A program made the position numbers and the translations under genes. Under the pieces are notes generated by a model. It did not search any database. It worked only from the letters and a program-made list of their open reading frames with translations, and was not told the DNA's origin. 64,000 nucleotides of DNA from Amoebophrya sp. A120 (taxonomy: Eukaryota; Protista; Dinoflagellata): NCBI GenBank assembly GCA_905178155.1, contig CAJINV010000007.1:3986265-4050264 (forward strand). Direction: 5' to 3'. Shown one piece after another: positions 1 to 42,267 of this stretch (position 1 is its first letter; every line of letters starts with the position of its first letter).

Positions 1-21
1 GGTCGGGACGTTTTTCCTCAG

Positions 22-9000: not shown

Positions 9001-12000
9001 GGACCGGGCGACCTTTCCCTGGGTATTCCAGGACCGGTTTGAGTCCTGCGACGTCACCTGCCGGGACCTGGGGCGGCGGTGCATTGCAGAGGAAATGATG
9101 AAGGTGGATTCCTTGGACAAAGTGAACGAGATCCTGTTCGCGACCGCCGGCCTCAACTGCACTTCTGGTGCCGGGCGTGCGTACGCAAATACTCCGTGTC
9201 TGAATTTGGCGGCAGGATATGAAGGGATGTGCTTCTACCGGGATTCTTCGCACAGCTTGCATGCAATTGACCCAGCCGTCGGCTCGACATGTTGGGCCCA
9301 AGCCCCATATGACTCCCGCCTGACTTTGTGCTATTGCCAAAGATTGGCTGTGCCTCGCGAGGCAACGCAGGTCCAGCTTTTCAAGTCTTTCCACAAAAAT
9401 TGGGTACTGGCTGCGCGGAAAGACTCCTGCAACACCGCCTGTCTGAAGAGCGGCAACCGGGTGTGCAATAGCGAGATGCAATCACAAGTAAACACGCAAG
9501 ACCGCTTCCAGAGGGCCGTGCAACTTGCTACCGGCATCCCGGAGTTTGCCTGCCCCACGGGTCCGTTAGGACACTTGCCGGACGTTCGTCTCGCTGCGCA
9601 TACTGGCGTGCCAATGATCGGCATCGGACGAGCCAACGGAGGGCAGCACTATGGAAAGTGTTTCGTCTACTCGGGCCCGCATTCCTACAACACAGGGCAC
9701 TCCTCGCAGGGCGCCGCTACCGAGGGGGAGATATGGCGTTCTCAAATGTTACATTCTCAACTATTACATAAATTCGTAATGCAAGAATGGCAAAAGTGAA
9801 AGGAAGGGGGAAGGTTGCGCCTTTTGCATTACAGGTTTGGAGCTGATTGCAATGCTATCTAGTGCGTCGAGAGCTTGTCACGCGGAGAAGGCTTGGACTT
9901 GTGAAAAGTGACAGGGTTTTGCATGGCCAACCATGTAACAGCTGAGAGCGATCGCTTGAGAGCCCGTGATAGAGTTTTGCATGGCCAACCATGTAACGGC
10001 TGAGAGTGTATCGCTTGAGAACCCCATAGGAAAAGACCCCGGGGTACAGCAGTTGCCGGTCCAGTGCTGTCCTCGATGATTGGGGTAGACACCTCTGCTA
10101 TTGTATGCATTGCAATACGAATATATGCCTGGGCGTGGGCCTGGAAAAATGCAGATGATATGAGTTGCCCCGTTGTTTTTGGATCTGCCAGAAGGTATGG
10201 AATGCATGCAGAGCGTGGCAAGAACAGGCTCCGTGCTCGTGCCGGGGACTTGCACTCCCTGCCTTGGAGTAATTTGCATGAGAAATTCTAGCCTTTCCAC
10301 CGAGAGTGACGGAGATTAGAGCTGCGCATCGACTTCTGCTGACTATGCGCGACAGGAGGAGACGCTTCGCTTTTCCAAAATTTCTTGCATGACATCACGT
10401 TTGCTGCATCCTGCTTCCAGAGGACCCACACATAATTCATGTTCGCAATGCATATGCGGCGAGAACCTGGAAGAATCCTACCTGCGAGCGCGCAACTACC
10501 ATCGGAACCTTCTGAAGAACGAACCCTATGAAAGCACGCGGGACTGGCGCGACTCCTCGCCGGTGGTGTCACGAGGCCGCGCGTCCAAGTGGATTCTGGG
10601 GGGGGCCGGGCGGTCCTGCTACCAAACGTGTCGCGACGAGGGGCCGGGCCTCTTCTGCGACACCGACGAGCGCATGGCACTAGACGGGGACGCCCGGCTT
10701 CGTGCGGTGCTGAAGGGGCCTGATATAAACCGGCCGGACCTGTGCGACTCGTCCTGGACCGTTGTCGGAAAGCCAGACGGCGGGGTTCCTTCCGTTGACC
10801 CAACCACGAAAGAATGTTACTTCGTGTATGCATTGCAAATACGTGTCGTGGGTCGGCAAATTTGCGCTGCTCCTGATATTGGTGGCAATTATTCTCAGGC
10901 CTGCATGTACGGAATAGAATAAACAGCATGTTGACAAGTTTAGCTTGTCATGCTCTGGCTTCAGCCTTAGGAGTAGGACGAATGAATTCGCAAGAAGCTG
11001 GGGGCACATGATATCCTCAATCTTCCGGAATTAGCACGACAGAAAAAAGCTAGCGACTCTTGCTCCTCGCATTCATGAATCACGGATCTTGTTGTCTTCG
11101 AACTCATGCATGACAAAGTCCACCGGGGGACACAGACAATAACAAATTTGCAATGCATATCGTTGCAGGGAATGCAAGTGCGACGGCTGGCGAAAAGGTC
11201 TGGACAACCCCCGCAAACTGCTACGCTATTCCCAGTATCAAACTCAAGAATGTCTTTTTCTGGGTCTGGAGGAGATAAACAGATGACACTTGTTGTCGTT
11301 CAGTTTTTGCATCTACTGCAAAGTAGTGCAAAGCGATGAGGTCTGAAATTATACAAACGGAGACTGTGGTGGTGGTCAAACTCTGTCAACACGTCCTCTC
11401 CAGACCTAGTCTGCATGAGAGATGGCGCTCTCCCCCGAAGACAAAAACCGTGTTTCTTTTGCTGACCACTACGCATTCAATTTTTACAGAGATTTGATTC
11501 ATTCGCTTTACCTGTTCCAGAAATGAATCCGCATGACAGGTTCCTCGCAGCCTTCCAGAGCCGGACATATTTGTAATGCATACCCAGAGTTGCAACGTCC
11601 CCCCGGCTGCCAGTTTGCTTCTGCAGGATCCCGCGTCTCAGCGACACTTCCTACGCCGTTCCCGACCGCGCATTCCTGTTGCGCTCCAATGATCCGCACT
11701 GGGTGTTGTCGGATCCGGGGGAAACCTGCGTGGTCACCTGTGCTAAGTCCAACCGCCGCATGTGTGATCCCACGAAACAATATGCATTGCAAAAGTACCG
11801 GCATTGTACTAGTTATAAAACAAATGAAATTTTATTTTTTTAGAGAGAAACAAATTTGTCACGCTACTGCGATTAGTGCAAGCGCGATACTTTTGCAGAG
11901 GATATATAAACCGCCCTGTCGCATGTCAGCAAAGTTCTGGACGCGGTCGCCAGCGCGCTCGGGTTGATATCGAATGTAAACATATCTGGTCGGGGCGAGT

Positions 12001-12541
12001 GGTCATGTGTGTCATGCATCTTTTGCATGATCACACAATTTGCTTGGAATGCGCCCAAAAGCATTTCCAGGCTTTGCGGGCGAGGCTTTGAGATGTCTTC
12101 TATCCCGGATTAGCAGCTTGCTCTTTGCGTGGCAAGAAATGGAAACATTGTGGCGCTCAACATGCAAGATTTCGATTATAGATTTTTGCGTGGTCTGGAC
12201 TTAGCATCTACTCAGGTTAACATCCTTTCAGACCAAGACGCATTTACGTACAAACTTAAGTCATTCTCTTCCTTGTCCTGTGCCACGGTCTTGCTTGTTC
12301 CACCAGACAAAACGCCAGAGATATTTGAAGTGCATAGCTTACCTCAGTTGACAATCGCAACCAGTACAGCAGCAACGCAGACGGCGTCCCCAGCATTGAG
12401 CTGCGCCACGGCAACGTGAAATCTTTCAATTCTTCAGCGCAGGAGACACACAGCAAGTGCGCTTTGGTGCAAGACGCCTTCCACGCCCCAGTGTGCTACT
12501 GTCGCGACCCCGACGCCCCGGACTGGGACTTCGCGGTATGA
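22..12541 (+). CDS. 3' part of a giant multi-exon Cys-rich extracellular/surface protein (PAN/Apple-like modules, F5/8 type C/fucolectin-like domains, poly-Thr linkers, four C-terminal Cys repeats); ~2,980 aa in window, 5' end lies upstream
   Basis: Exons 22-748, 1464-5754, 6053-7952, 8280-8381, 8769-9731, 10034-10103, 10460-10826, 11165-11235, 11588-11780, 11910-11967, 12342-12541 join in frame after removing 10 TIR/DR elements. Motifs KPWWQVEF, MYAQIDLG, PWYQIDLGEVMSV; CxxxC...C..F PAN-like units; four WVL..G.(S/T)C...C...C ... C(Y/F)C units. Acceptor ttcctcag at 14-21. The end at TGA 12539-12541 is uncertain because gtatga could be a donor. Confidence 0.8.
749..1463 (+). mobile_element. 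Introner (non-canonical intron), 715 bp, 50-bp TIR
   Basis: TIR tacgttagggaaaactgtccccactacc.cggttttccccaaagagaaaa at 749-798 and 1409-1458 (1 mismatch); DR acaaa/acaaa; removal gives ASTNKPWWQVEF. Confidence 0.92.
5755..6052 (+). mobile_element. Introner, 298 bp (TCTGGGTCTGGA family)
   Basis: IR tacaaacatgtctgggtctggaagaat / attcttccagacccagacatatttgca; DR cgacc/cgacc; joins ORF 1345 to ORF 6083 in frame (TTTTSSTTGG). Confidence 0.88.
7953..8279 (+). mobile_element. Introner, 327 bp
   Basis: IR tattacaatgaaaaatgccccc / gggggcattgttcactgtaata; DR tgttt/tgttt; frame preserved (KYNVSRHVF). Confidence 0.85.
8382..8768 (+). mobile_element. Introner, 387 bp (degenerate TATGGAAG-GTCAGG family)
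   Basis: Left tatggcagggtcaggctggaaat..agttgaaata, right tatttcaatt...cttccata; DR ggtga/gatga; joins ORF 8765 in frame. Confidence 0.75.
9732..10033 (+). mobile_element. Introner, 302 bp (TATGGCGTTCTCAAA family)
   Basis: Left end nearly identical to the element at 15212; right ...gcttgagaaccccata; DR ggaga/ggaaa; gives TEGEKTPGYSSC. Confidence 0.85.
10104..10459 (+). mobile_element. Introner, ~356 bp, decayed DR
   Basis: tatgcattgcaatacgaat / attcatgttcgcaatgcata; DR tattg/tgcgg (degenerate; an end at 10456 is also in frame); joins LCYC to ENLEES. Confidence 0.75.
10827..11164 (+). mobile_element. Introner, 338 bp
   Basis: tatgcattgcaaat / atttgcaatgcata; DR tcgtg/tcgtt; gives ECYFVAGNAS. 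Confidence 0.85.
11236..11587 (+). mobile_element. Introner, 352 bp (TCTGGGTCTGGA family)
   Basis: Left tatcaaact..tctgggtctgga, right tccagagccggacatatttgtaatgcata; DR cccag/cccag; gives AIPRVATSPRLPVCFC. Confidence 0.85.
11781..11909 (+). mobile_element. Introner, 129 bp (TGCAAAAGTA family)
   Basis: tatgcattgcaaaagtac / gatacttttgcagaggata; DR aacaa/tataa; gives CDPTKQTALSHV. Confidence 0.8.
11968..12341 (+). mobile_element. Introner, 374 bp
   Basis: tatcgaatgtaaacatatctgg / ccagagatatttgaagtgcata; DR gttga/gctta; restores GVPSI...PVCYC of the fourth Cys repeat. Confidence 0.75.
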
Positions 12542-15119
12542 AAAAATATATTGATACCGCTGCGACGAAAATACATTTAGAGTCACTAAAAAAAGAGATG
12601 AGCTCACTTCTGAAGGTGAGTTGACCACCGACCCCGCACGACTATCGCGACCCAGGGGGCCACGGGCCCCAATCCCGACGCCAGGGGCACCGTTTGCCTC
12701 ATGGATGGCGCCGCGGCCGAAGCACAGCACCGGCCTAATATGAGCACGGTGCAATCATAATGTCAGCCTCCAGCTTTGATGCTCCTACTCCTTCAAGCTG
12801 CGAGCTGCTTCGAGTTCGATGGTAAAGTTTTTCGATGGACAATGCATGCTTTCCGTTTTCTCTTTTCGTAGCCAAACGATATAGTTTATTTTTCAACCAC
12901 GACTACTACAGAGCGCAAAGAAAAAGTATTCGCAGCTGCAATTTTTTTTGAGTCAGTCCCTCTGGTGCGTGGCTGCGTCTTCTCGGATGAGGATCAGTCA
13001 CACGTCGTGTTTGTTTTTTTTTCTGAACGTCAAAAGTTTCGGAGCGGCCCGACTCTCGGCCCTTTTCAAAATTCGACCTCTGTCTATGAACACCGAAGAG
13101 CAGCAAAGACTGCCAGAATAAATCGCAGAAAGATGCAGAGGCAACGAGCTTTTTTTTCCAAGTCTACTCGCGAGGTGGGCTTTTTGAGTCTGTTTTTGCA
13201 GCTCTTTCCTTCGCATTTTGTAGTTTATAATTTTCAGAAGTTCTTGTGCCGCTCGTTGTCTCCCGATTCTCGTGGAAAAAAGTCGACTCTTACTCACTCA
13301 ATATACAAAATCTTACCACACTTGCAGAAGTGCCCAGTTGCATTTTTTTTGAAGAACGTGATGCGTATACGGGACACAATGACATTGATAACAACTACAC
13401 CGGAACCCGGGTGCTGGTGTGGCCCAATAGGTGCAGTTTGTTTGAAAAAATCGCAAGCATAAGAGGCACCCAGCGTGAACCGAAGCAAACACACAGGCAC
13501 CAGGGCTGCCGCGTGTTGTTTTTATTCTATCTTCCGCTTGATGCAGAAACTGAAAATCAAAATATTAATTAAGATATGTCTACAAAGACCTTGAGCTTGA
13601 CGAGCAGCAGGAGCAGAGCTCTATTAATTTCCTTTTCTGCTCTCATTCTTTATTTGGTTTCTTGTTTTTGAAAGTCACTCCCACACCCACTGCTCTTTTT
13701 CGTTGACGATATTTTTTTTATATATATCATATAGAAGAAGAGGACTTCGATTCCTACCCGCCTTTGGTGCTTTAGTCGCGTATTTTTCTACAAGCAAGAA
13801 TGGGTGATGAAAGAGGGAGTCAACAAAGCTAAAGCTGTACTATGTACATGGCAGGCGAAGGTGTGGCCTCCGTACAGCTTGAATGTGGAAAGGCACAGGC
13901 TTCATTCAACGGGGTCACCTCTATGGCAACAGGGCAGTGGCTTTCAATCCTGCCGTGTGTCGGAGAAGGGTAAGGGAGCATTGCCGACTCAGGCTCCCTA
14001 TCGTCGTCAAGAAATTGATCAAAGAACTTGATCTGTGCACAGAGATGCGTCAGCTTTCGTTTTTCCTAGTATTCCTATTTTCAATTTTCTCGCGCAAATT
14101 TTTTTATAGGAGTCTGCTTTTTGTTGGTTCCAGCTCGCTGTGAGATAGTGAAATCTTGAAATCTATATTGCAGATGTCTGCTCGTCAAAACGTCAAGCAG
14201 CCAACAAGTATCAGCTGTGTCTGCAGCAGGTTGTCGTTTTTTTTTCATCAATCACTGAAAATGAGTTGTATGTAAAGTCTGTAGTATCAGGTGATATGTC
14301 CGAAGCATGAGCCTAAGAGCGAGATGCCAGGTATATCAAAAAATGAAACAAAGCGACTAAGTAGCGCTGCTATTAAAAACAAGTATGTAAATGTTGAATA
14401 GTTGTATGCCTTGTTTTCACTACCCGTAGCAGTGGAAACAAACAGACGGAGGGGCATGCAGGACGAAGATCTCCCAGAGGATGATCTTTGCGGCCAGCGA
14501 AAAAGGTCCACCTTCACACGTAGTAATCGGGCTCTTTTCCAGGAAAATACGGCTCTGGGATTTTCCTTAAACTTCCACCAGTTTCCGTGTCAAGAGCACC
14601 AGCAAGCTTCTTGGGCGGTCCACACTCCAGGAGCTTTTGTGCCCTGTTCCTGTACAACTAACCTGAGAATCTTCCACTGCGTTAGCAGATGAAATGGTCT
14701 CGGTTCTTGCCGACCACTACTTCATCTGGAGGTGGTCTGCTGCTTGCAGCCTATTTCGTCGTCCCACTTGAGTGCTAGTACGCTGATCCAAGATGATCAT
14801 AAACGTTGGCGTGTCGATCTTTTGATTTTTTTTTGTCGTGCCGGTGCCGTGCCTGAGCTAGCAGCTAGGGGCTACAGCTCATTTGATTTGATCAGTGTTT
14901 TTCTCTTCACGCCCGTTTCAATATTATTCTTTGCTCTTTTCTTGGCAAGATGTGATGCCACATTGTTTCCAGATCAACTTCTACACCACGGATCATGTGA
15001 GGAGCGTGGTCTTCGAAAAATAATTTGTGCTTGTCGGTGTAGTAACACAGCAATTTGTTTAAGTTGGGCAAGAGCCTCGAGCTACATGATACGTATAATT
15101 CGCAATTATTGAGAACGAC

Positions 15120-18100
15120 ATGCCTCGAAAACAAGAGCCTTCCTGTTTCTGCTGTCCACGCACGGGTCGTGGGGGCGACGCTCTCACCACAACGTCAATC
15201 GCTCCCACACATATGGCGTTCTCAAACGTTACATTCTCAATTGTTACATGAGTTTGTCATGCAAAACTACCATCATCATCAACAAGGTCAAGCTGCTTCG
15301 CATGACAAATTTGCGAAGGGCTAAACACCACCGAAATCTGCGTGGCATTTGTAATGCAATTTTTGCAATCTTCCCTCTTTGGCTTTTGCCATTCTTGCAT
15401 TACAGATTCATGTAACAGTTGAGAATGTAACGTTTGAGAACACCATAACACAGTTGGAGGCTTTGTTTTGGAAGCGGCGCGTTTTGTCCAACCGATTTTG
15501 GCTCGCCTCCGCACTGGAGGCGTTCCTCCCCGTTCTCATCTTTTTATCCGTGTTGTGCTATTTTTCTCTCTACTACAGAGGTGGTGAAGAAGATGATAAG
15601 AAGTTCGCAGAATTCATCCACCCCGTCCCTGCTGACGAGGGAGGTGGAGCGATTTTCCGTGGCGGTTTGCTGGCGGGAAAAGGAACACCGGAGCACGGAG
15701 GTACGAGTACGGCCGCGTTTCGGTTTGCGCCGTATCGTCGCAGGAGCGCTCACCCTGCCGCGCCAGTCGCTTACACCCAGCCGATACCTCCGCGCGTAAA
15801 GGATGTCCCCCCGAGCGCCGACCTGCGCCAGGAGTCCGACAACCTCTACCCGGGGCAACTTCTTATTTACAAGCGGCCCTTCCTTCGAGACCTGGTAGAG
15901 ACTGCGAATAACGCTGGCGTCCGCCCAACGGACCTCGGGTCGTGGCTCACTTCATCCGCTACGCATTTATCGTCCTTGCGAGATGAAATATTGAACAAGG
16001 ATCAACTACATGTTCCTGTCCAGGAGCATCGTCATGGAATGGCAACAGCACCAGTAGTGCAAGCGAGAAGATCGACAACGTCGTCTCAGTTACGCACCAC
16101 AACGAGGACGGCCGTTGCCGGCCACAAAAACAGATGCAAGCTCTTCGCTTTGATTTCGGACGACCCCCTTTTTATTTCGCAGTTCCAAGCAGACTACAAG
16201 GACGCTTTCCGCACGGATACGACAACAAAAGAAATCTTCGAAGAGCACGGCTGTGCCACAAGCACGACCGGTCGCATGCAGCAAGACGGTGGTGGGACGG
16301 ATGAAGTGGAGGATATAAGAACAAATAGCGCGCCACCAGCTCCTGCAGCAGATGAAGTAGTTCCCCTTGTAGTTTCGGGAACAACTACAACAAGAACGGG
16401 AACTATTGAACATCAACATGTCGCAGCCGCTCCCACGACCACAGCCGGACGAGCGGGTAGTACGACGACAACTTCTAAGGACCACGAGCTGTTGCAGGAC
16501 CCTCCACGCGGCATTTTGCGGGTCTTTTCCTCTCGACAAGAATTTTTTCGCCTGTGGAGCAGGTCCCTGAACATGTTGCGGCGCGAGAACATCAAGTCTC
16601 CTGTGACCACTGCGACCACACTTCTCGCTGGTAGTGTCGGGACACAACAACTTCTACTCGAGCCCCCTCATCAGACCACTGATCCTCCCGCGGCGTTGCA
16701 CGTGGAGAAAGGGCGGCAGGAGCTGCTGGTGGGCGGGCTTACTGCTGGTGAAGACGACCGCGATCATCACGCGGACAGCCGACAAGACGGGCACCACGAC
16801 CTCCAAGGTTCTGATCTTGGTCCTACTTCTGCGGATCTTCATGAGTTTGACTGCACGCACTGGCATTTTTGCTCTGCTGCCTTCTACGCCATTGTTGAGG
16901 TCTTGAAGACCCCTACTGCAGCTGCTCCGAACAGTGGTCCGAAAGACGACCAGCGGCGGACTTTAGCTCGTTCCGGCGAGGTGGAACCAAGCATGACAGA
17001 GCAGGAACTACAAATCGACGAGGCATCAATTCCAATTCATCCTACGCACGACGAGCCGGCGAGCGCTCCGGGCAGCACATCCTTTTCGCTGCCGGCTGGA
17101 CGCAGCGTTCGAATTCAACACGTGGTAGCACGACCGGCTCCGCAAATAGAAAACAACTCTTTAATGCTCCGCGAGCATCAAGAGGATGATCATGATCAGA
17201 TTTATTTGGAAAGAACGCACACGGCCGCGGCCCCGAGCACTAGTTTCGAAAATAATAAGAACACAGCTGCGCCTGTTCGTCATATTAAAGAAGAAGCGCC
17301 GGGGGATCAGGACCGCTTTCAGGAAAGGCAGAACATTTTCCAGGCCGTGGCCCTGTCGCTGCGCAAGCTTGCACGAAGATCAAAATGGCAAGAAGGGGAA
17401 TTAGAAGCAGACGACGAGAGGTTCTTGTTTTCTAGTGGACAAGACACCTCCCCGACCGGCGTCACGGTGCTTCGAGGTTTCTTTCCGAGCTTCCCGCAGA
17501 TTGGCATGCACAGTAGCAGCGTTGGGGGCAACACCTCTGAAGAACAACGTCAGGAGATGTTGGATGACAACACAACCAAAATAGCGAAAGGAGCCAATCT
17601 TTCGCTAAGTGACTGCGAACGAGTGCTCTTGCTCGCCATTTTGTTCTCGTTTCCAGTGGTCTTTTTCCGGACGGTGTTCGAGCTGATTCACGAGCGAAAT
17701 TTAGGACTGAAGGAAACACTCAAGTGTTTTGGACTGCGGGATCGGTTTCACTACTTCTACCGGTTTTGGTGTCCTGACGGCTACGATTGCACGGGAGGTT
17801 TGTTCGTTTTCGCGGTTCTTTCGGCGATTGGGATGCACGTGCTGCTTGTCTTCGCGGACGATTCGTTCTTTCGTCCGGCTGCTCAAGCAGGCAGGCCAGC
17901 GTTTGGATCGGCGGTGCTGGACCTCTTCGCGTCCTTCTGCTCCACCGGCGGGATCGCTTCCCTGGCCAAGTGCACCCTGTTGACGTTTCTGTTCTTCGCG
18001 GCCGTGCGCGCGCAGGCCTCCGCCTGGTCCTGTTTGTGGAGCGAGGCCAACACTGGGGCGGTGTCCGGGTGTCTCGTCTTCGCCGCCCCTCTTTTGTACC

Positions 18101-21100
18101 ACTTGAGCCAGATTTACGGGGCCTGGCATCTTGGCAGTGGCGGGGGCTCGGTGCTAGGGACGAGTCGACGTCCGAGCATTGGCAGAGGCGCAGATCACGA
18201 GGCTGTTGACCACGACGACGGACATCTTTTTAGTAGTTGGAACTCTCCGGATGATCCTCGTCCCGCAGCCACCAGGCTACTGGGGGATCGATATGGAAGT
18301 GTCAGGTTTGAAATCGACAAAGTTGAAATAATTTCTCACGCATAAATTGCAAGGCATGAAGTGCCTCTGTTGCAGGGATCGATGACAAGCGAGGCCGACG
18401 GTCACCCTGTTTGGGGTCGCATGGCAAAAGACGCCTTCCGCCCCGAAACAGCGCAACGAACTGGATTTAGACGGCGCCGCTTGAAAATTGACCTTCCAGC
18501 AACTGGTATCGATTTTATGCATTGCAAGTTACTTATTTCAACTTTGTCGATTTCAAAAATCCTGACACTCCCATAATCGAGAGCGAGATGTTGATACGTT
18601 TTCGGGTGAAATGCAAATGACGGGACCGACATCAACTGCCACTTCTTCGCTCTTCACGTCGATCCTTGTGCCGCACACGGATTTTGTGCACGGAGCCACC
18701 GAACTCCTTGCGTTGCACCGAACGACAAAATTTCAAATTGTTGACCACAGCCAGCACTACAACTACCAAAGGAGCGATGCAACCTCCACCTCAGGACAGC
18801 AGTTACACGACCTGCATCTTCAGAAGAAGCTGCGATCTGCGGCGAAGCTGGAGGGCGAGCGCGAGTTTCACCTGGAGGAAGTGAGCCAGAGCGTGTGCCA
18901 CTTGCTCGCCAGTCTGTGCTTCTACCTGGTGCTCTACTATTACTTGGACCAAACCATTCGCCACGCGAACTGCAGCCGCCAAAAGCCGTGGTTTCTGTTT
19001 ACGAAAAAACACTGGAAGGGCGTGATATTCGGGTACGAGCGGAGTGCGGGAGGTGGGCGTGCCGGGTGGGGAAAACACGGCAAGCAGATGCTCGCAGGAC
19101 GACTGGAAAATAACCATCCGCCATCCTCGTCCAGCCCTACTGTTCCTCGTTCGGCTGTTGCACCACGAGCCCAGCAGCAGAAAAGTTCTGGTGGTGCGCA
19201 GTCCACGCTAGCACAGGAGGACAAGGTCGAGCTGGACGAGAAAACCGAAAACAGAGCTGGTGACGGCTTGTTGCTGGCTGCGTCAGCTCGTCCGGAGGTA
19301 CTTGTGCCAGACGACCGGTCCTCCGACGGCAGAAGCAGCAACAGCTCGTGCTACTCACGCAAGCCGGCAACCGCAGCGGACCTGCAGCAGAAGGTCATGC
19401 GGTTGTGGGAAGAGGATGAAGAGGACGATGATGATGATGATGAAAGCACCGGGCTGATGCACGGATTATTTCCAGAGCAGGACTCGTCTAGGAGCTATCC
19501 TTTCGTAAACAGAGTGCGGGGCTTTCTCGGGGAAGAGGACTACGATTGTAATGGAAACCTGGTGGAACGTCCCCCAGAGCTGTCCAGCGAGGAGATCGCC
19601 CAGCAAGTGCAGCGATTGCGCGACGCACAAGCGCAAGTAGAACTGGATCATGTAAAGGCGCAGCAGGTGAACAATAGTATACAGGGCCGCAGAGAAGTAG
19701 ACGCTGAAGACGCGGTGGGCGAGCATATGAATAATGCGAACGCTCGAGGAGGACGTTCGCAGAGTAAACATCCGCAGCGGGTGGCGCAACTACAGACATC
19801 ACAGCAGCACATGGCAACATCATTACAGCATAATTTTTATCACGAACAGATTCAGGACGAGCGGCTGCTGCGGTGCGAGGTACTGAATCTGATTGCCGAC
19901 ATTCGAGATTTGCGCGTCACCTACAAGCGGACAAAGGTGCTCCGGGGCGTGAATTTGAAAATGTACCCGGGAGAGATTTTCGTACTGCTCGGCCACAACG
20001 GCGCGGGGAAATCGACAACAATGAAGGTTCTTGCAGGGTTTATCTCGGACTATGCCGGCGACGTGTCCATTTTCGGGTACAAGAATCAGATCGAACTGAT
20101 GCGGAAGACTGGGGAAATTGGTTATTGTCCGCAACACTGCTCGTTGTTCGAAGATTTGACGGTGAAATATTCCCTGAAAATTAACCATCCCCATCCAATT
20201 TGTCATGCAAAACATGTAGGAAAGTCTGTGTTTGTCATGCAAAAAGTGGATGGGGATGGTTAATTTTCAGGGAATATGAAAGAGCATCTCCTGTTCTACC
20301 AAAAGTTGAAGCAGCGAAAACGTGGGGGACGTTTGACGACGAGGGCGGGCGTTCGTTCAGTGACGACCAGCGGCGAACAGCGGCAGCACGACGACGACAA
20401 GGGTCATGAAAATGATGAGAATTATTACGTCACAAGCTCTTCAAGAACAACTACAGAAGCTGCTAGTGCCTTGCTGGCGGACCAACTGCTCTCCGATCTC
20501 AGTCCGGAATTGTTCGACTTGCGAGACCAACTGGTGAAGCAGTTGTCGCCGGGCAACCAGCGTCTCCTCACCGTCGCCCTCTCGTTCGTGGGCAATCCGC
20601 GTTTTGTCATTCTCGACGAGCCCACGTCGGGGGTCGACCCCATCACGCAGCAGCAGATTTGGGAGTTTTTGCACAAGTACAAGCGGAGCCGGATCATCAT
20701 GCTCACCACGCACTGCATGTTGGAGGCTGAACGCATCTCCGACCGCGTGGGCATCATGAACGAGGGACAGATCCGGTGCTGGGGCAGCTTCGCGTTCTTG
20801 AAGCGAAAGTTCGACTGTGGCTACAAACTGTTGCTGGAGCTGAACAAGGATTATTTCCTCGAGCGGAAAGTGGAGAGTAGTGCTCTGTTGTCCAAGTTTG
20901 CCGATCCCTTTCAATATAATAACGATCAGGATTACAACTCGCTGGTTCCGGCTCCTGGTGGTGCAACAGCAGAAATATTACACTCGGCAGCTGGTCGTGG
21001 TACTGGTTCTGGTGGTGCTACGAAAATTTCCTCTGCTTACAACCCGGGCAACAACATCGCAGAGATGAAGGTCAATCCCCTAGACGACGACTCTGACGAC

Positions 21101-24100
21101 GGCTTCAACTTTCTCCTCGGGCCCAGTTCCCGCAACCGTCGCGCTTTTGACGCGATGAATAGTCGGAACCCGCCGGGCTATCCAGGAAAAAACACTCATC
21201 CCCCTCGAATTTGTCATGCAAATAAACTTTCATAAAGATAAATTTCTGTGTTTACCATGCAACAAATGGATGGGGATGGGGTGTTTTTCCTGGATAGTAC
21301 GGTGGCGGGAAGATTTGTCGCCCAGCAAAAGCACAGCCACCAAGTTGTCGATACGCAGACGCAGATAAAGGACGAAAAGGACTTTTGTTTCGCGATGCAG
21401 CACGACTTCTTTCCGACGGTTTTTCAAGATTGCGAGGAGTTTTATGACCGACCGCAGTCGCCATTGTTTCCCTTGTACAAGATCAAGACGATCATCGACG
21501 AAGAGAGCAAAGCCAGCACAAGCGGTACAAACGGCTTTCTTGCCGGGCTGCTTTCCGATACAACTTGCCCCTCCGCAGGACCACACAGTGCAGATCATAG
21601 TAGCTCCGCGGTACACTACGAACTTGTGCAAGATTTGGTGACCGGGAAAATATCCATAAAAAAACACTATATCCCCATGTTGATCCTCCAATTACAATTT
21701 GTCAGGCAAGCAATCATGCATGAAAAAAATCCACACGACCACTGCTTGGCATGCAGCTAAGAATGGATGGGGACCATCATCAGGGGTGATGCTTTTTTTT
21801 CTGGATAGAAAAACGAGATCTGCGTCAAGCTCCTTAACAGCCAAGCAGATCTCTCTAGTGGATCTGGTGCTGCGTCCGCGACGTCCAATTGTACAAGCTT
21901 GCTGTCCAGTATTTTGCGCCGCTTCGAAACGGAGTTGAAGCACGGCGTAGAGCTGCAGCCCCCAGCTCCAAAGAAGAACAGACTCGACGGGTCTTCTAAC
22001 CACGCGGAGGTGGACCACGTAGAGGAAGACATCGAACCAATCTTGCAAGGTGGCATCGGGTCGGTTGTAGTCGGTTGTGAGCATAACTTGCTTCAACATA
22101 TGAAAACACGCAACTTGTTTCCCTCCCCCTCATTAGCATGGCCATGGCGTGAGCAGCATCACAGACGACATAAGAAATGATCAAAATGTACTTAGTGCCT
22201 ACTGCGTACTGAAAAATTGTCCTAGCAGGAACTTCAGTGCGGTTCGGGATGCGGGAAACTGTCACACAAAGTGAAGATGCGCGCACGCAGCAACAGCATG
22301 TGGAATTGTTCTGCTTTTGCATGACATCAGTCGAGTGGGACGAGGAGGAGTTGTGCACTCTCATACAGCAGGATAGTACGACGAAGATGAACAAGCTGCA
22401 GGGCGGAGCATTGAATGCTAAGTCGTCGAAGAACTCGAAGATTGCAACTGCTGCTTTCCCAAAAATCGTTTCCAAAGTTTCCATTGAAAATTGCAACTTG
22501 GGCGATGTTTTCCTCAAGATTGCAGCCAGCAGTACAAGTACATCTACAACTTCGGACGACTACTCCACGGCTGGGACTGCAGGAGCCATCTCATCTCCCT
22601 CTGACGATATTGAGCCGGAGGACTACGCAGGACGAGGAGCATGGGACGGAGTCAATTTTTCGCAGAAGGAAGCGAGGAGCCACAAAGTCCCTGCAAACGA
22701 TGAAAATGAATTTAGGACTCAGCAAAGCGTATCTGCAGCTCAATCCATCGTGAAAAGTGCGAAGTATCACTCGATCGACCACGACGGACGAGCACGAACA
22801 ACAAATGCGCGGCCAGGAGGAGCAGGAGGAGCCCCAGCCGCTACTACAAGCACTGCAGCACAGATAGTAAATCGATCTCGGAGCAGGGGCAGCCGCGCTC
22901 TGTCGGTTGCTTCGAGCGGAGCTGTTTCTTTCTACGAGGAAGGAGAAAGTAGAACGAAGACAACTGGGACAAAAACTACAACTGGTTTCGCTTTACCGAC
23001 ACGAAAGAAAAAGCAAAATAATAATTACGGGGAAGATCATCTTCATGTTGAGGATGATTTGTCCAGCAATGCGGACTCCGTGCAGATGTCGCACAAAGCT
23101 CTGGTCGTTTCGAGAAACACCACGGGCCAGAAGTCGCGAAGGAATTCCGTGGGGCTTCTAGCTGGTGAGGAGGCGGCAAACAAGCCTAGAGCAGGAGCAG
23201 GCTTTCTTGGCAGCACCCTGGCTGTGAGAAATCTCATTCCGTTTTTCAATCGGGCCGGCAAGGACCACGAGCAGTGTGCTTCTATTGAGGAAGGTGGCAG
23301 GAGCTTCTCCACGGGTAATCTCAACAACTCCTGCTTCCAAACCTGCCAAAAGCGCATCCGCACCAGCCGTCGCGGGCGTGTTTTCTCTGCGCTGTTCGAA
23401 ATGCGTTGGCTGACCACGCGCCGGGATTTCCAGTCGCTGATCCTGACACTCTTCGTGCCGACGCTGTTTCTCACGCTCGGTTGTCACTTCTTCTATCAGC
23501 AGCGGGCGAAAGTGCTGTGGAGCAGCATGCACGGCCGCCGAGGACCAATAGTGGAGCAAGGAACGGCAGTAGAGGTGTCTTCTTTTTCACTTCCTGCAGC
23601 GGGCAGTCCTGAGGACCCCACGGCACTCGGCTTAGTGTTTCAAGGCAAAAAGCTTCTTGCAGGCATAGCAGGCAACAAGATTTTTAACACCGACCACGCG
23701 TCGGCCTTGCCAACGACTTCCAGTGCGGTTGCGAACCCCGTCGCCGGAGCTCCACCACCACCTGCGCAAAGTAGTAGTAAAAAAGAGGCCCAGGATGTTG
23801 AACGTGATTCACACGACCCAGCACACAATCAACTCCACAACCTCCACGCACTCGGACGAACGAAAACCGAGGCTGCTACGGGCCGCAAGCCGCGCATTTT
23901 GTACGTGCGCGTGCCGAAAGCGAAAGCAACCGGAACTGGGGAACCAGAAAACGAAGTAGATCCTCAGGAGGCTAGAACCTCTCCTGGCACGACACCAGTA
24001 CTACCAGTAAACAATTTCCACGCTGACGTCGCGACGGCGGTGCGGAAATTTGGCTTGAAAAATGTCGAGTACGTAAATCCAAACACAATTTTCGGGAGTA

Positions 24101-27100
24101 ATGCGAATGCTGCGCCCTCCTCGTCCACAGCGACGACAGGAGTAGATTCAGATCGTGCTGAGCAACAGCAGCAGACACCATCCGATTCGAATTTCTTCAA
24201 CATTAACGAGGTTGCCAACCGTCTCGATTTTTTCACGGTCGTCGCAAGTGCGGGAAGTGATGATAGTCAACAACATGCTGCTCCCTTGCCTGTTCAAACT
24301 AGCACGACTGCCGCGGACGACGGTACCACGGCATCGCGTGTCGTCCCACTGTTATCAGGCACATCGGACGAGCAGCAGTTGGCAGCTACGAAAAGGAAGC
24401 TACTGTATCGTGCCTACGTGGCCCAGCGGCTCATGGCGCTCAATGGGATAAGATTCGAGCTCGCGGGAGCAGGAGGAACTGCTGGTGGCACTGCTGTAGT
24501 TGTTGATGGTGCTTCTAGAACAAGAAGCGCAACAAGCGACGTAATAAAGCTCTCCTCTGCTTCTGCTGCCGCCAAAGCCGCGCGAGACTACATGTTACCC
24601 CAATTTGTCAAGGACATGATGGTGGTGCCACCCCCTGTTGCGACGTCAACCTCTGCAGACCACTTGCCGTCTGTCGTCAAAACTTGCACGTCTTCGGACC
24701 GCCCGGCTGGCCAGCTTCGCGGTCCTGGACAAGACTTTCGATCCTTCCGCGACACTTTCAAGGGCGTCTATTCGCTCGCAAAGTTGCAGGACACGGCCGT
24801 GCGAATCTCGGGGGTGTCTGCCGTCCTCATTGCCGAGAGAAAACTTACCTTTCTGGAAGATAGTAGGAGTTCTGGCCGTCGTGACAAGAACGGGAAAACG
24901 TTACAGAGTCAGGAGCAGCTTCCCTTCTGTGCGGTGACAAAAGAAGAGGATATGAAAGTGCATAACTGACAACTTCTCCCCGCCTCATTTGTCATGCAAA
25001 ACCAAAATATTACCAAATCCTAATCCACCCGTTGTCTCTTGGTCTTGCTCTTCGCACTTTTTTGCATGATAGGTTCTGACAGCCCAATAAACAGCGCGAC
25101 CACAATCCTGCGCTATTTTTTCATGCGAAACCTGCATTCTTTTTCTTGCCGACCACCCTTGTACTAACTTTTGCTGTTCATGCCCCGGGGGAGTAGTTGT
25201 GTGCACCCTGATAGCGGAAAAGCAGATTGCAGAGGTGTTTTCATCGACGAAGGAGTCCTCCGCTGTAGTTCGTCATGCTGGGGACCTTGACAGCAGGCGC
25301 ACTGCAGGAGGTCGACGTGCCTCGAAGGTTTTTCGAATTCCGGATCTGGGCAAAAATGAAGAAGACCGACAGCGAGGACCAGATGCTGTCGTGGATTGGA
25401 ATGCCCTGCGGCACATCTGCTGTAAGCTGCATCATGCCCCGAAAGATGAACAAGATAGCGAGGCGCAGCTACTCCAAGGGCAGGCGGCAGCTGCCCACAA
25501 TCTGTTCGCATGTGACGTTAATGGGCTGTTCCTGTCTGTGGGGCTCACGTCCGCGAGGAACAACGACGGCGAGCAAGTACGACAGGGTACTAGCGCGGGA
25601 GAGGATAAAAAGCACGACCAGAGCAAACTGCTGCACCCCACGTACGTCCAGGTCCTACCTTCGCCACAAATAAAGCCGCGGACCAGTAGAGGCGACGCCG
25701 ACGCCACCACTTCATTTGATGGTGCACCGTGTAGAACTCAAAAGCAAGAAGCTGCGACAAGAACCCAGGAGCAACGAGCGGAGAATCATGAACCAGACGA
25801 ACCCGGCTCCGTCACCGCGACGAAAACAAGCAAAGCGGGGTACGTGGTGTTGTCGCAAGACAAGATCCTTCTCAATCTACCGGTTATTGATGCACGGGGG
25901 AACGTATGCATTGCAAATATATCTGGGTCCTCTGTTGAAATTTGTCTTGTCATGCTTATCCGACATGACTGCAGAGATTGTGTTTGTGATGAATGTCGAT
26001 GGTTTGTGATGAATGTCGATGTCCATCAAATTCAAATAAAGGCCTCAGTGTTTGTCATGGAAAGATCGACGTTGCTCGCCATGCGGATGGCGCAACACTA
26101 TAGGCGGCGCTCAATATCTTCTCATGCTTAGCTCCTGTTCCTTGCAGAAGTCCATTTTTCATTTTTCACAGGTGAGCACATACAACGAACTTGAACTTTC
26201 CTGACCCAGACATATTTTCACTCAAGAATAGAACAAGCTGGGTAGAAGTAGTAGCACCGATGAACTACGGGCCCCCTCCCACGTTGTCGTCCCGGTTGCT
26301 GCAGTCGGGTTTGACGCTTTGGGTAGCGGAGTGAAAATTTCCAATTTCTGGTACATGCAAAACAACAATCAAGCTGTGCTCGCACCGCGAGAAGGTGAAT
26401 TTATTGTATCGGACGGCCAAAGCGTTGCGGTTGCGGAAGATGTTGACGAGATGAAATCTGCGTCGAAGCTGGAGCTGGAGTTCCTAACTTACGCACAGGA
26501 ACAACAACAGCGTACAACTTCTCCCGGGGCCGGTGCAACCGGTGGAAAAAGTGAAAGTAAAGAAATTGATGTGAAGACCGCTTCAACAGCTGCTTCCTCG
26601 ATTTTGTTACCTCGCCGTGGAGAAGACGATGTCAGTCGGTGCTACATGCTTCCAGCGCAGGAGCTGCGGAGGTGGAATAATTTTTGCCTGCAACCCACCG
26701 GACCGACGACGACCTCTTCTCTGCTTGGCCCGTTGATCTCTGTGAGGACGTCAACGCCTCTGCTCCTCTGGACCGTGCACTCTCGCAAGCTCCAGCTCGC
26801 TGCCAGCGCCGCTACGGATACGCCCTTCCCGGTGCACCCGCTGGTGACGCTGCGGCAGACGCGAGCCTTTCGGGCAGACTTGGCGATTCTGGATTTCGAA
26901 CAGGAAAACGACATCACGCTGATTACCACTAACGCAGATGAAAACGACGCGAAAAGTTTCCAGGCCTTGCTGCTGTTGTACTCGTCGAATTACTTTTCAA
27001 CATCTTCCAACGGCGGGGGAAAGCTAAAGAACACCGATGGTCGTGAGGATCTTATCGGAACAAGCCCAGACGCGTTTAAAATCACCAGTGCCAGTTTCGG

Positions 27101-30100
27101 CGAATTCGTAGACGACGAAGACGTTGAGCTAGTCGCAGATACTTCTAGTGCTTTACCTAGCTTGATGCAACAGGAAAAACTAGCACCCACTCAAGAGCTT
27201 CTAACTGGTCGGGCGGCACGAGCGCCGCAAATTGAAGGCCCGACACGAGGACGACCAGCAGACAGAACTGCTCTGCCGGGCCAGGCGACCGTGGCACTGC
27301 TCGAGTTGAACAAGAAAATGAAAGGCTTCAAACTGGACGACAGGAACTCTGACTCACTCGTGGTCTCCGATTTGAAGATACTCCCAGCAGCTGGAGATGA
27401 GCAGGCTCAAGACGACGAAACGTTTACGCAGCTGTTGAAACTCAGCTTCATCTTGTCTCTTCTGGTCGGCTTTCTCATCACCTTCTCCATCTTCTTCACG
27501 TCGTATGGTTTGTTGGAAAAGGAATTTTATTCGAAATTGAAACTCCACGTTCTGCTTTCCGGGATTACTCACATGCAGTCTATGCAATACAAATTTCCTG
27601 TACACGTAGAAAATGCAATACGATCGCGAATTTAAGCTAGAGCAACATTATGCCGCTACTTGTCATGCTGAATAGACGCGAGTGAATTTTTTATTTTGGC
27701 CTGAGGCACTGTTAGTGGGTGTCCACTGCGTGATGATAATGATGATGATGATGATGATGCAGAAATAGCCGCGCCTGCACGTTGTGTGCAGAAAATTTCT
27801 TGTGGAGACAGTATTGGTTTGGCGTCTGGATTTGGGACTGGTTGTTTGCGCTTTCCTCCGGTGTCTGCTGGCTGGTGGTGGTGGGATTGTTTGTGTTCGG
27901 AAAGACCACGAGGAATGCAGGGGCTGGTGGACATCATGCGGCAGAAGATAACACAACGGGAGAAGGTACCAGCAGTGGAACAAATCTTCTGTACTACGCG
28001 TTCGCACTGACACTCCTCCTCCATTTCGCCATCACTGCGGCGCTATTTCAGGTATACTTCTTCTCCCATTGCAAAAATGAGCTGTGGCCGCGGATGTTAG
28101 CGCGCTGGTTAAAGAGCGCACAAAACACGAAGCCGTCTGCCGTTCCTTGCAAGAACAAGAATTATGGTGCGGCTCTGCAGAACAAGAACAACGATTTAGC
28201 TCTAGCAGGAGACGTCCACCGGGGCGGCCCCGGTAACTACAGTTTTCGACCACCGCGCCCCCCCCTGGCGCTCGTCCTGGCGGATGACCCCGGCGGCCTC
28301 GGCTCGACAAATTTCATCGGCACGAATAGCAACGGAAACAGCGCTATCCTGTGCAAAAGTAAGTATCGTACTCGTACTAATTGCAATTATGCTTGTTCTT
28401 GACAAATCTTGTCCTGAAGGTCAAACAGCATGAACAATTCCATTTGCCATTCTGAAGTACTTAATTTGTAATGCAATTACCACTAGTACGATGCTTTTGC
28501 AATTCATAAGCGCCAGTTCCTCCGTCATTCGCTGCTCCTGTCCGTCCGTCACCTTCGCCATCCTGTTGGTTTCTAACCTGCTCCTCAGTGTGCTGTTTGC
28601 GTCAAGGGAGTTAGTGAGCAGTAGGGTAGTGGTGCAGGATTTTCTGGACAAGGTAGTTGTGGAGGAGCTGCACGAAGGTCATGACGACCCGCGAGGAGGA
28701 AGCGACGGAGATGGTACTGACCACGGGTCTTACTCGTTTTACGAAGGAATTCTTGCTCAACATCCTCTCGACGAAGCCGAAGATCCTGAGGCACATCAGC
28801 AGCTATCCCCAGAAGTGCCACTGTCGCAATCATCTCATTTGAATAAAATCACGCACCAGCTCGGCGAGGCTCTGTCTCGTGCGAGCAACCTTTTTTTTGC
28901 TGGCTACACCTTCGAACCGCACAACTCGGCCACAGGACCGACGACAACTGCGTTCGTTGATCGCTCCGACGCTTCTGTCGGCGTCTTTCAAGCGGACGCT
29001 ACATCTTCTTCTTCATCTTCATCACCCGAGGAGGAAATAAAAGCGAGAATCATCGACTACGTGGACCGAGCTAGTCAACGCCCGTCCTTGCCAATGGGGA
29101 TTGTTTTCCCGGGAATGGCTTTTCTTTCCGCTGTTGGGAAAGTGTTTTTGCGGAAAATTGTGTTCGAAGACTTCGTCTGGACGGGGCACAAGCACAACGA
29201 TAACGGAGATGGAAATAAACGGAAGACACGGGGGAATAAGAATGAAGCGCTCTCTAGTACCACGCAAGAACAGCTCTCGCGCAATCTATTGCCGGAGCAC
29301 GTCGATCCAAGTGTAGTCCCAGGTTCGCACTTTCTACCAAGTTTGGTGTTTACGAATCGCTTTTCCCGTTGCGAATTGACCGCAAGCGAGGAAAGTAGAC
29401 CCAGTAACGAAATTCAAAATGACGATCACGGTCAGGAGACTACCTCCAGCGGCCCGCCCGGCGCAGCAGCTACAACCCGACCTTGGCCGTTATTCTCCTA
29501 CTTTTGGTATGGCGCAGACTCTACAGAACTTTCTCCAACCCCCAGGCACGTGATTCAATACAGGGTTCCCTGCGCTTTCCGGGATCCAGCGGAGCTCTTC
29601 GCCAGTATTTACCTTAAGACTGGTATGGCTGCCGTGAAGATGTTGAAGAAAGGAGCAGCAAAACTTGCCGACGACCTCACAGGCAGGGTGGTACAAGGAG
29701 CGAAAGCCGCCACGGAGATGAGCAAAGTCGTTCGGTCAGGAGGTGCTAGTGGTCCTTCCCCGTCTACTTCATCTGTGGCCAACATGGACGCCAGCAAGAG
29801 CTTTCTCGAAAAGCGGGCACAAATTGGCGCGCGGCTTTTCGGTGATGACACTGTGGGAGCAGATGAAGAAGATCATGCGACTATTAAAAGTGATTCGGGT
29901 AATATTATCCCGGCCCTTGACGACCGTGATGAACAAGCTGCAACACCCTCTTCTTTTTTGGCAGAGAGCGAGTCAAGAACATCTACTCCTTTAAAGAGCG
30001 GCGTTGACCAGCCAGAACAAGTCCAACAGCAACTACTGCAGAATGGTCGTATTGGGGGACAGGTTGGAGGGAACTTCCTGGCGAAAGTACTAGCTGCGGG

Positions 30101-33100
30101 TCAGGACAAGAACTCCTCCGTGTTGATGCAAGAGGGAGCCAGCCGCGGTCTGACCCGAGGACGAGGCAGCTCAAGAATCGACGCTGCCGAACTAGAAGCA
30201 GCCAGAAACCTGCACGCAGCGGTCGTCGGCGATTACTTCTTTCGATCCTTGACTATTGGAACTGAACTCATCCAGTTGCTACTGTCCTTCGTTTTGTACA
30301 CCTCGCTTTTGATTGTAACTACGCTGTTCACCAGCGTGGTCGTACGGGACCGGCAGAAGTCATCGAGTGGCACAGCCGCGATTGCAGGAACTACAGCTAC
30401 TGCGTTGATGATTACAGCGGATGACGAAAATCAATCCGGTACAAAATATGGGATGAAGAATCAACAACTGCAAGGAACTACGTATGGTCAACAGAACTAC
30501 GCGATGAATACGACAACCGTCTTTCAAGGCATCAAAGCGCGCATCTCGCAGGCGCTGAGCGGGAGGACTTTTACTTGTCGGAACACGTCCTCTTCGTCTT
30601 CGGGTGGAGGGGTGGACCGTCGGCGGAAGATGATGAAGAAACGAGGAATGCTTGCTGGCCCCGGAATAAGTACAAGAACCAATGATCGCTCCAGTCTGGC
30701 GTCAAGTCATCATGCGTGTAAGGCTAGAACCATGGACAACAAAGACAAAACGACCTTGTTTCCGCCCGCGATAACAACCTCGGTTGCCGGTGTCGTAAGT
30801 AAACGCAGCAAGCAGAGCAACAGTACGCCACGGAATGAGGAGGATCACGACGATGACGACTTTCCCGAAGCCGCGGACCTGAGCGAAAGCGACCACGGGG
30901 AGTACAACGCTCAACTTCTGGACGACGAGGAGGAAGAAGATGACTTCAGAATGATGAAAATGAATACTGCACTGGATCATGACATCAACAAGGCGTCTCT
31001 CCAGCACAAGTCTCTCCTCCTCGCGGACACCCTGAGACACGACCAGATTGACAGTGAGTTTGGCCTCCGGAAGATGGGCCTGCTCCCCGCGGGACAAGGC
31101 GACATGATGAACAAGACAGCTGCACATAACTATCCAGCCCGACCACCGGCCACCGCCGGAGGCTCCGTTCGTCGGCCTTCTAGCTACTATGCATTGCAAA
31201 ATTTATTGTCATTAATGGGTAGCACTAGTAGTAATTGCAAGATTTTTGCATGTTGACAGATCTGCCTTCTTTACCTTAGAGAACAAAGTAGTTTGTAGCT
31301 ATGCAATTTGCGCGTGCGCTAAAAATGCTACATACATTTGCACAAATGCATAGCTACCATGGGTCCACGGTTTCCTCTTTCCGCATTCTGGATTCGGAGT
31401 TGCAGGCGGACGCCGGGGTGCTGCGCGAGGTGGCTCGCGTCAGAAAGATGAACGACTTGGTTTTGAAGGAATCCCAGGTCTTGTTCCTGAAAAACGTGAC
31501 GAAACAGTATCCGACCATGGAAAAGCCCGCCGTTTCGAATCTGCACTTTGCGGTCTGCGGCACGACCGGCGATCATCTACTCTCAGGACGAGCTCCTGCA
31601 GGACCAGGGAACAAGACTAGTACACAGCAGAACTTATTTAACACCAACATCAATGCCAAGCACCTTCCGTTCCATCTCCGCCGGTCCCCGACGCTCGCCG
31701 ATGGTGCGGGGGTGTTTGGCTTGCTGGGCCGCAACGGCGCGGGGAAAACCACCCTGTTTAAATTGATCTTGCAACTGGAGAACGCGGACTACGGAGAAAT
31801 TTTCGTGCTCGGCCATAACAACAGCATTGCGGCGAGCAGGAATAAAAGCAAAAACTGCTGCTCGCCGCCACCGTACGAAAAGATCGGCTACTGCCCGCAG
31901 TTTGACGAGTCTTTTCTACCGCAGCTTACCGTGTTTGAAAACCTCCGCTTTTACGGTCAACTGAAACTCAAAGAGAATATGGAAGCGTCAGGTTTGAAAT
32001 CGTCAACGTTGAATATAATTTGTAATGCATAAAATGCGACACAAAAAGTGCCTCCATTGCAGAGGACCCAAGGGAGGCAGATCATAGTCCTGGTAAGGGT
32101 CAATGTCAAAAGTTGGACTGCTAACTAGCATGACAGAAGGCAGCTCCTTTGCCCTAAACCGCGTGACAGACTCGCTTCCACGACCGGGAAAATTTGCCAT
32201 GCACCGACTACAAACTGTGGGTCTAACTGGTATCCGTTTTATGCATGACAAACTATTTCAACTTTGACGATTTCAAACCTGACACATCCAGAGAGAACTT
32301 CTCGAACCTGAAAGTGAACAACCTGATCGCCAAACTTCATCTGCAGCAGTACGCGAACAAGAAAGCCGGGCACTTGTCCGCGGGCGTGCAGCGGAAGGTG
32401 TGCTTCGCGATTTCGCTCATCGCATATGACAGTGCAGCACAACTGCCCCTCCCCCTGATTTGTCATGCAAAATACTCAATCCACCCTTTGTCTCTTGGCA
32501 CTGTTTGCGTGACAAGTTCTGGTAGCCCAAATAGCACTACACGCCAGTGCAAATTTGTCGTGTATTAAAACCGGCACTCTTGCTGATGCTTGTATTGCCG
32601 TTCATGCTATACAAATTAGGGGGAGGGGGAGTACGTAGTTGTGCACTGTCATATCGCAAACCCCCAGATTCTTCTGCTCGACGAGCCCGGCGTGGGATAC
32701 CCCGAGCAAAAATATCCCCACGCCAGAGTTGATTGTCATGCAGATTTGCTATTCCAGGGAGAGGGACACTAGTTGTAATATATGCGCAAGAAGCGCATCA
32801 CCATATAAAAGCAGCGTCTCCAGGTCCAGTCGTCTTCTGCAATTTGTGATGCTGTAAACAGGATAAGGAGCAGACGGCTTTATTGTGATCGACGGCTGTC
32901 CTTGCTAATTAGAAACTGCCCTACAATACGTACAGAGAGGAACTGCTTGGCATGCGTGACTCCCAAAAGAAACTTCTGCATTTGTGTTGCTAAGTTCCCA
33001 ACTTGACTCTGGGGTGGGGACCACGTTTTCGCTCCGGATATGGAAATCGATTTGTTTTCCAAGCAGAAGATGTGGGACGCGGTCAAAGACTGGGCCACTA

Positions 33101-38230: not shown

Positions 38231-38730
38231 CCCGAATTGCTGTGTTTGGCACAGCAATTCTGGCTACCCAGGGAAAAGATTTCCCAGTAGGGTACTGGGA
38301 GGGTATCAGGATAATGGGGGGGTATTGGCGCAGTGGGAAGGTATGGGCAAGGGAAGGGTGAATTTTGTTTGTTTTCCCCGAATTGTTGTGTTTAGCACAG
38401 CAATCCTGGCTACCCAGGGGAAAGATTTCCCAGTAGGGTACTGGGACGGTATCAGGATGGTGAGGGGATATTGGCACAGTGGGAAGGTACGGGTAAGGGT
38501 AGAGAGAATTTTGTTTGTTTTCCCCGAATTGCTGTGTTTAGCACAGCAATTCTGGCTACCCAGAGGAAAGATTTCCCAGTAGGGTACTGGGAGGGTATCA
38601 GGATAGTGAGGTGATATTGGCACAGTGGGAATGTACGGGCAAGGGGAGGGAGAATTTTGTTTGTGTTCCCCGAGTTGCTGTGTTTAGCACAGCAATTCTG
38701 GCTACCCAGGGGAGAGATTTCTCAGTAGGA
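38231..38730. repeat. 146-bp tandem repeat, ~3.4 copies, two hairpins per unit
   Basis: cccga(a/g)ttg recurs at 38231, 38377, 38523, 38669. Confidence 0.9.

Positions 38731-40889: not shown

Positions 40890-42267
<1,378 letters not shown>

Follow-up and report, generated by a model that had tools for sequence, protein, structure and literature searches.

The stretch analysed here, 64,000 nt of contig CAJINV010000007.1 of Amoebophrya sp. A120 (the window), contains 33 elements, each bounded by terminal inverted repeats (TIRs) and by direct repeats of 5 nt, and this analysis concerns how such elements are removed as introns. The curated set combines pattern scans, reading by eye and RNA joints; a strict scan pattern (TA..TA, an arm of at least 13/18 and a repeat of at least 4/5) matched 17 times, compared with 0-3 times in each of 8 block shuffles. 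Elements are named below by the first base of their left TIR. The left end is TA in 33/33 and TAT in 30/33, while at the right end 28 elements have TA and the others GA (3), TG (1) or TC (1), so that the TA-NNNN right end which an earlier note on this DNA had taken as invariant is only the prevailing form. The TIR arms are identical at 11-25 of 25 positions, and the repeat copies are identical in 16 elements and mismatched in 17, the latter being the number that the earlier note had given. The combination of TIRs, target site duplications (TSDs), short length, lack of coding capacity and multiple copies is that of miniature inverted-repeat transposable elements (MITEs), or non-autonomous TIR transposons. 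Inverted repeats (IRs) of 8-20 nt starting with TAT, border repeats of 3-5 nt and removal from RNA at non GT-AG sites are those of the A120 introners. As judged from sequence, the elements are therefore very likely MITE-like transposon insertions of the A120 introner type, and as such they are already known.

The recognisable genes in the window are all encoded by the + strand, which agrees with the unidirectional gene clusters reported for Amoebophrya. The first, of unknown family, occupies positions 1-12600 (the end is approximate) and has a 2986-codon frame after removal of 10 elements, including 749 and 5755; a Pfam search with its longest exon gave no match. In all four runs described below the contigs continue without gaps for about 2.2 kb past its last intron (12341-14570), ending near 14550-14576, and this segment is likely a long 3' untranslated region. 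The second gene, at 15448-34314, encodes an ABCA-type transporter (PF00005), with a 5220-codon frame after removal of 14 elements. Its best match, in a search limited to 2000 residues, is Amoebophrya sp. A25 P0001 (51% identity, E 1e-46). The protein would have about 5000 residues, against about 1600-2000 in typical ABCA matches, owing to long low-complexity inserts. A third gene, at 48250-64000, has a 3886-codon frame after removal of six elements. Between the last two lies a Rab-like gene (40899-42270; PF00071) with three GT-AG introns, 41123-41276, 41457-41632 and 41829-42012, which, as placed from the reading frame, all start GTA and have no TIRs.

The joints come from contigs of four runs (X1-X4) of one sample from one study. 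The contigs are unstranded, and the RNA nature of the runs is a guess, supported by the fact that the contigs skip every element. They cover 14800-34500 (X1 only) and 6600-26500 (X1-X4), and three raw-read runs (X8-X10) have only 0, 2 and 2 reads on the stretch. Among the joints listed, 19 of the 23 elements in the covered stretches have one. Joints that cross-map to other element copies or to a Thr-codon repeat were dropped (15311-15383, 15312-15387, 18292-21177, 6855-7538 and 9768-15290). Every one of the 19 joints skips the TIR element plus 5 nt in the ungapped register of the arms, and every one restores a long frame. Since the excision takes one 5-nt repeat's worth along with the element, insertion in either orientation restores the frame. 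The register can be expressed as k, the number of bases of the left repeat copy that are kept in the messenger RNA (mRNA). Eight joints are uninformative for k because their repeats are identical (spliced introners within 7952-33786 on the + strand, as are all elements described here, with TIR starts at 7953, 11236, 20168, 28345, 31188, 31978, 32425 and 33614). The numbers of the 11 informative joints that are fitted by k=0 to k=5 are 2, 2, 4, 5, 11 and 7, so that k=4 alone (left bases 1-4 plus right base 5) fits 11/11, and a k common to all 11 arises in 0.0005 of simulations with random per-intron registers. The fixed 4+1 register proposed in the earlier note, with the cut between repeat bases 4 and 5, thus holds at every joint that can speak to it, and the intron extends from one base before the left TIR to four bases after the right TIR.

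Seven of the informative joints set a lower bound on k. At least two left bases are exonic in the introner AT..TG at 8381-8767 (repeats GGTGA/GATGA; joint 8378-8766), which has no predicted in-register stem, and in AT..GG at 24950-25217 (TIR 24951-25213; GAGGA/GCGGA; joint 24947-25216). At least three are exonic in AT..TA at 11780-11908 (TIR 11781-11904; AACAA/TATAA; joint 11778-11908, X1-X4), where, as had been argued, keeping fewer than three gives a TAA stop. At least four are exonic in AT..AA at 9731-10032 (GGAGA/GGAAA; joint 9730-10033, X1-X4), in GT..CG at 10103-10458, a GT without AG (TATTG/TGCGG; joint 10102-10459, X1, X2 and X4), in AT..TT at 11967-12340, again without a predicted in-register stem (TIR 11968-12336; GTTGA/GCTTA; joint 11966-12341, X1-X4), and in AT..GA at 32697-33044 (TIR 32698-33040; TGGGA/TGGAA; joint 32696-33045). 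Two joints set an upper bound (k no more than 4) by keeping right base 5, namely those of GT..GT at 10826-11163 (TCGTG/TCGTT; joint 10821-11160, X1-X4) and of CT..GT at 27580-27812 (TIR 27581-27808, with a GA right end; CAGTC/CAGTA; joint 27575-27809). The remaining two give k=4 exactly: CT..AC at 21178-21300 (TIR 21179-21296; joint 21177-21301, X1 and X2), whose repeats CGGGC/GTACG are alike at 0/5 positions, so that the 4+1 cut is unique, and GT..AG at 25904-26231 (joint 25903-26232, X1-X3), which is 4+1 by its stem register (right end GA, 26226-26227). Both conserved-residue arguments of the earlier note also stood. Left base 4 at 32698 yields DEPGVGID, which is the reading of the A25 orthologue P0001, and the Gly is present in 209 of 218 DEPxx?xD motifs from 120 homologues. 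Right base 5 at 27581 yields QYW, and YW is present in 12/12 aligned homologues. The products named as contrary to a fixed register, QSW at 27581 and DEPGVE at 32698, are seen in none of the RNA joints.

The other elements are placed by sequence. Four without a joint lie within 15211-22369 (TIR starts 15212, 18292, 21651 and 22099), and removal of 18292, 21651 and 22099 keeps the ABCA frame. An element that is GT..AC by the rule lies at 47088-47260 and has an alternative TA-G acceptor 3 nt upstream; a close homologue, P0121 (88% identical), reads GGKQ here as k of at least 4 predicts, a support that is comparative only. Further elements outside the contig-covered stretches lie within 43089-58711 (TIR starts 43090, 53387, 54380, 54705, 58011, 58286 and 58558).

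Under the 4+1 register the 33 elements begin AT (16), GT (8), CT (6) or TT (3); the earlier count was 32 with 7 GT and the other classes the same, and the extra element is probably 43090, which appears to be intergenic. The base counts that follow are for the 19 RNA-defined spliced introns unless the 33 elements are stated. The first position is variable, as had been claimed (A10, G4, C4, T1), but it is not wholly free, as it leans to A (16/33 elements, p=0.027). It is followed by T+2 and A+3, both 19/19 and hence invariant as proposed, and by T+4 in 18/19. At +5 there are 11 G, 6 C and 2 T, and with G in only 20/33 elements the description of the donor as GTATG-like is only partly apt. At the other end A-7 and A-5 are each 19/19, with T (16) or G (3) between them at -6, while the last two bases form 12 different dinucleotides, so the absence of a fixed AG is upheld. 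The first base of the next exon is A in 19/33 elements (p=0.0014). On the coding strand, 18 of the 19 introns cannot be read as GT/GC-AG or AT-AC in any equivalent placement. GT..AG occurs in 1/19 spliced introns and 1/33 elements, which is not the pattern of canonical U2-type ends. Three of the four GT donors use a non-AG acceptor (CG, GT or CA), and the introns that have TA-G, all with a +1 other than G, pass over an in-frame AG lying 3 nt upstream in 7/7 cases. U12-type introns have the donor consensus RTATCCTT and an AC or AG acceptor; here AT..AC occurs in 2/33 elements and the ends spread over 22 classes, so the set is not of the U12 type either. We found no covariation of the first and last base (G:G or A:C pairs in 7/33 elements, 6.8 when shuffled), no evident pyrimidine tract at -30 to -8 (pyrimidine fraction 0.39-0.65) and no clear branch consensus in the right arm. 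The difference between the left TA (33/33) and the right TA (28/33) suggests, on small numbers, a donor-side constraint. At least 6 in-register end-to-end pairs are predicted in 28 of the 32 folded elements (a 3.2-kb element was left out), and in the spliced introns 8382, 11968 and 24951 the fold has no predicted in-register pair.

What removes these introns may be approached through the bases that are kept. Reading of the acceptor in the yeast P complex goes through the pairs G+1:G-1 and branch-A:A-2, while U+2 pairs with A51 of U6 (10.1101/212811). The bases retained in the introners are U+2 and A+3, and those lost are the bases of this acceptor check. We hold with moderate confidence that the introns are removed by a modified U2-type spliceosome that reads U+2/A+3 but no longer the first, last and second-last base, and that measures from the end of the right TIR. 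Under this model the TIR would supply the donor (N|TAT...), U6 would still hold U+2, and intron definition, with U1 not found, would be helped by the end-to-end hairpin. To place the acceptor the machinery would count from the right TIR end, where A-7/K-6/A-5 may include a branch adenosine or be bound by a protein, and this counting would replace reading through the G+1:G-1 and branch-A:A-2 pairs. U6 also contacts A+3, and short fixed branch-to-acceptor distances exist in some other organisms. The ordinary introns of the Rab-like gene share a GTA start with the T+2/A+3 of the introners. According to Farhat 2021, U2, U4, U5, U6 and Prp8 are present in A120, U1 was not found, and the minor small nuclear RNAs (snRNAs) are absent (PMC7789003). 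AT5 and the Karlodinium strain splice canonically, and U1 is retained in the latter. An Rfam search of the 64-kb window found nothing, and no snRNA. In its Table S4 the leading A120 classes are 9/9 N-T..N-N and the A25 classes 9/9 TT..NN, and the A25 IRs start TTA (PMC7789003), from which it follows that two independent element sets, those of A120 and A25, share T+2/A+3. What the ruler is measured from can be worded in more than one way: measurement from the stem is not separated from measurement from the A-K-A sequence, because the three stemless introns are spliced and A-7/A-5 are 19/19. A sequence anchor or a branch adenosine explains the acceptor as well as a stem ruler does.

Several observations weigh against this model or against the generality of the register. 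The right arm, as noted, lacks a clear consensus for a branch point. A stem would keep the donor hidden and would have to be unwound, and at 8382, 11968 and 24951 the cut is in register where no stem is predicted. The published class table may carry a bias from the read aligner. The 1/4 asymmetry of the cut is seen for one strand only, as all genes of the window are on the + strand. Contigs drop rare variants, and all joints are from assembled contigs of a single sample. A unique cut is given by only two joints, 21179 and 25905, and each has a canonical reading: that of 21179 is GT..AG on the opposite strand, in contigs that are unstranded. At 25905 the repeat-defined right end (ATA 26228-26230, GAACG/GAACA) predicts a cut 3 nt beyond the observed one, whereas the ungapped stem register (arm identity 19/25, compared with 10/25 for the outer register) places the cut where it is observed, at what is also an AG; an Asn codon is doubled in the mRNA here. 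The ruler may have been shifted by a 3-nt insertion in the right arm, or else the ordinary AG served as the acceptor of a G+1 intron with TA-G. Since the arm register puts the cut at 4+1, 25905 is treated as ambiguous and not as a plain exception.

Removal without a spliceosome is the alternative that survives best, although we consider it unlikely. In this scenario a structure-guided nuclease would cut the hairpin base in a staggered way, at 1 nt on the 5' side and at 4 nt on the 3' side, and the exons would be joined by a ligase, as is suspected for the nonconventional introns of euglenids. The end-to-end pairing predicted in most elements, the lack of first/last base covariation and the failure to find U1 in A120 (PMC7789003) speak for it, and euglenid introns, as described in one source, likewise have offset stems and leave as circles (PMC11282704). 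It does not readily explain why the three introns without a predicted in-register stem are still cut in register, or why T+2/A+3 is common to ordinary introns and, in the published tables, to A25. In addition, a ruler made of the stem alone would not require left TA in 33/33 elements beside a tolerant right end. The related bulge-helix-bulge geometry of the transfer RNA type, with 1 nt on the 5' side, about 6 nt on the 3' side and a requirement for complementary flanks, was rejected by reasoning only.

It is also conceivable, but in our view very improbable, that the registers are mixed, with the whole left or the whole right repeat copy kept from intron to intron and the two exact cases being ordinary GT-AG introns, one of them antisense. 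For nine joints there is only a bound on k (k=5 is allowed by seven of them and k=0 by two), 25905 departs from its repeat-defined end, and Farhat 2021, in its text, calls the borders variable, with IRs 1-5 nt from the sites (PMC7789003). Such published variability is, we suggest, what would be expected from ambiguous alignment within direct repeats. The nine joints themselves speak against mixed registers: where the mismatch is confined to base 5 (two joints) the right base is retained, where it is confined to bases 1-4 (seven joints) the left bases are always retained, and when the canonical-looking 21179 and 25905 are omitted from the simulation a single k still fits by chance in only 0.01 of cases. 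Furthermore, the + strand ABCA frame requires the removal of 21179, which argues against an antisense intron. Finally, it is hardly credible that the joints are artefacts of reverse transcriptase jumping over hairpins at direct repeats, or of DNA from element-free alleles, since, although a hairpin with a direct repeat is a classic template-switching substrate and the RNA nature of the runs is only guessed, joints are also present at repeats of which only 0, 1 or 2 of the 5 bases agree, a long frame is restored by every joint, and the contig pieces listed, without letter differences over kilobases, lack five to six consecutive elements.

Some features of the elements themselves were also recorded. 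The inner motif TGTCATGC occurs in the window in 16 copies, all inside elements, as do 10 of the 11 copies of its complement, and it is possibly a transposase-binding subterminal repeat. In two long elements, 43090-43985 (896 bp) and 749-1458 (710 bp), the arms are perfect, the copies of the 5-nt repeat are identical and there are nested inner inverted repeats; both elements are likely young. Elements 25905, 27581 and 31978 belong to different subfamilies and all have T replaced by G at intron position -6, so that their right end is AGA; a mirror replacement at +3 is seen in 0/33 elements. A composite repeat of about 2.9 kb is present in two copies, at about 37090-39945 and about 54937-57875, whose ends are 80-88% alike and which contain satellite arrays and assembly gaps besides GC-rich heads. 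Introner 54705-57924 has the second copy nested within it, which makes it an intron of 3.2 kb, and the frame is still restored when it is removed.

The introners of A120 described in Farhat 2021 (PMC7789003) resemble these elements in their IRs starting with TAT, 5-bp repeats, hairpin, non-canonical ends and coexistence with GT-AG introns. More than 60% of the introns of A25 and A120 are non-canonical, with no detected U1. That study finds no clear terminal signature, describes the sites as variable relative to the hairpin and calls the borders unknown (PMC7789003), whereas here one register, N-TA...(T/G)A-NNNN, fits all informative junctions. The rule is partly foreshadowed there by the text on four-nucleotide direct repeats upstream of the IR and by Table S4, in which the leading classes are already N-T only; the rule is not drawn in that table (PMC7789003). 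The 2024 reviews repeat this account of Farhat 2021. A literature search, mostly of open-access texts and with the figures of Farhat 2021 outside the comparison, found no paper that states a fixed register; it also took in the available text of PMC12130899, PMC12005148, PMC11453091, 10.1101/2025.08.15.670264 and 10.1101/2022.06.08.495308. The introns of Fritillaria borealis, as described in the texts consulted (PMC11282704, PMC13326754), are alike in their TIR/TSD origin and non GT-AG ends and are removed by the U2-type spliceosome. They are mostly AG-AC or AG-AT and about half have an isosteric first/last pair, while here +1, -2 and -1 are variable and do not covary, and it is +2/+3 and -7/-5 that are fixed. 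Euglenid nonconventional introns share the offset end-to-end stem, TSD-like repeats and the lack of GT-AG ends and of a pyrimidine tract, but their stem, as given in the same source, pairs +4 to +6 with -8 to -6 and circles are released (PMC11282704), whereas here +2 pairs with -5. The introners of Symbiodinium, Polarella and Aureococcus are likewise introns derived from DNA transposons, with splice sites in or across the TSD. As far as these accounts go, they recruit G(T/C/A) and AG from the TSD and can shift the frame (10.1101/2020.10.14.339549, PMC9860276), unlike the elements described here, in which the target site gives no fixed base.

We think it probable that the spliceosome of this lineage (or a new splicing enzyme) has given up G+1, A-2 and G-1 and relies on U+2/A+3 together with a ruler of 4 nt from the transposon's right end, with A-7 or A-5 as possible branch points, such that any insertion of this transposon family, whatever its target or orientation, becomes a perfect intron. 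If this is true, the introners would show in a natural setting that the terminal pairs seen in the post-catalytic spliceosome structure are dispensable while U+2 is kept. The fixed register offers a usable rule for re-annotating introns by the tens of thousands, and it accounts for the way in which a transposon can flood coding sequence without the need for particular target sites.

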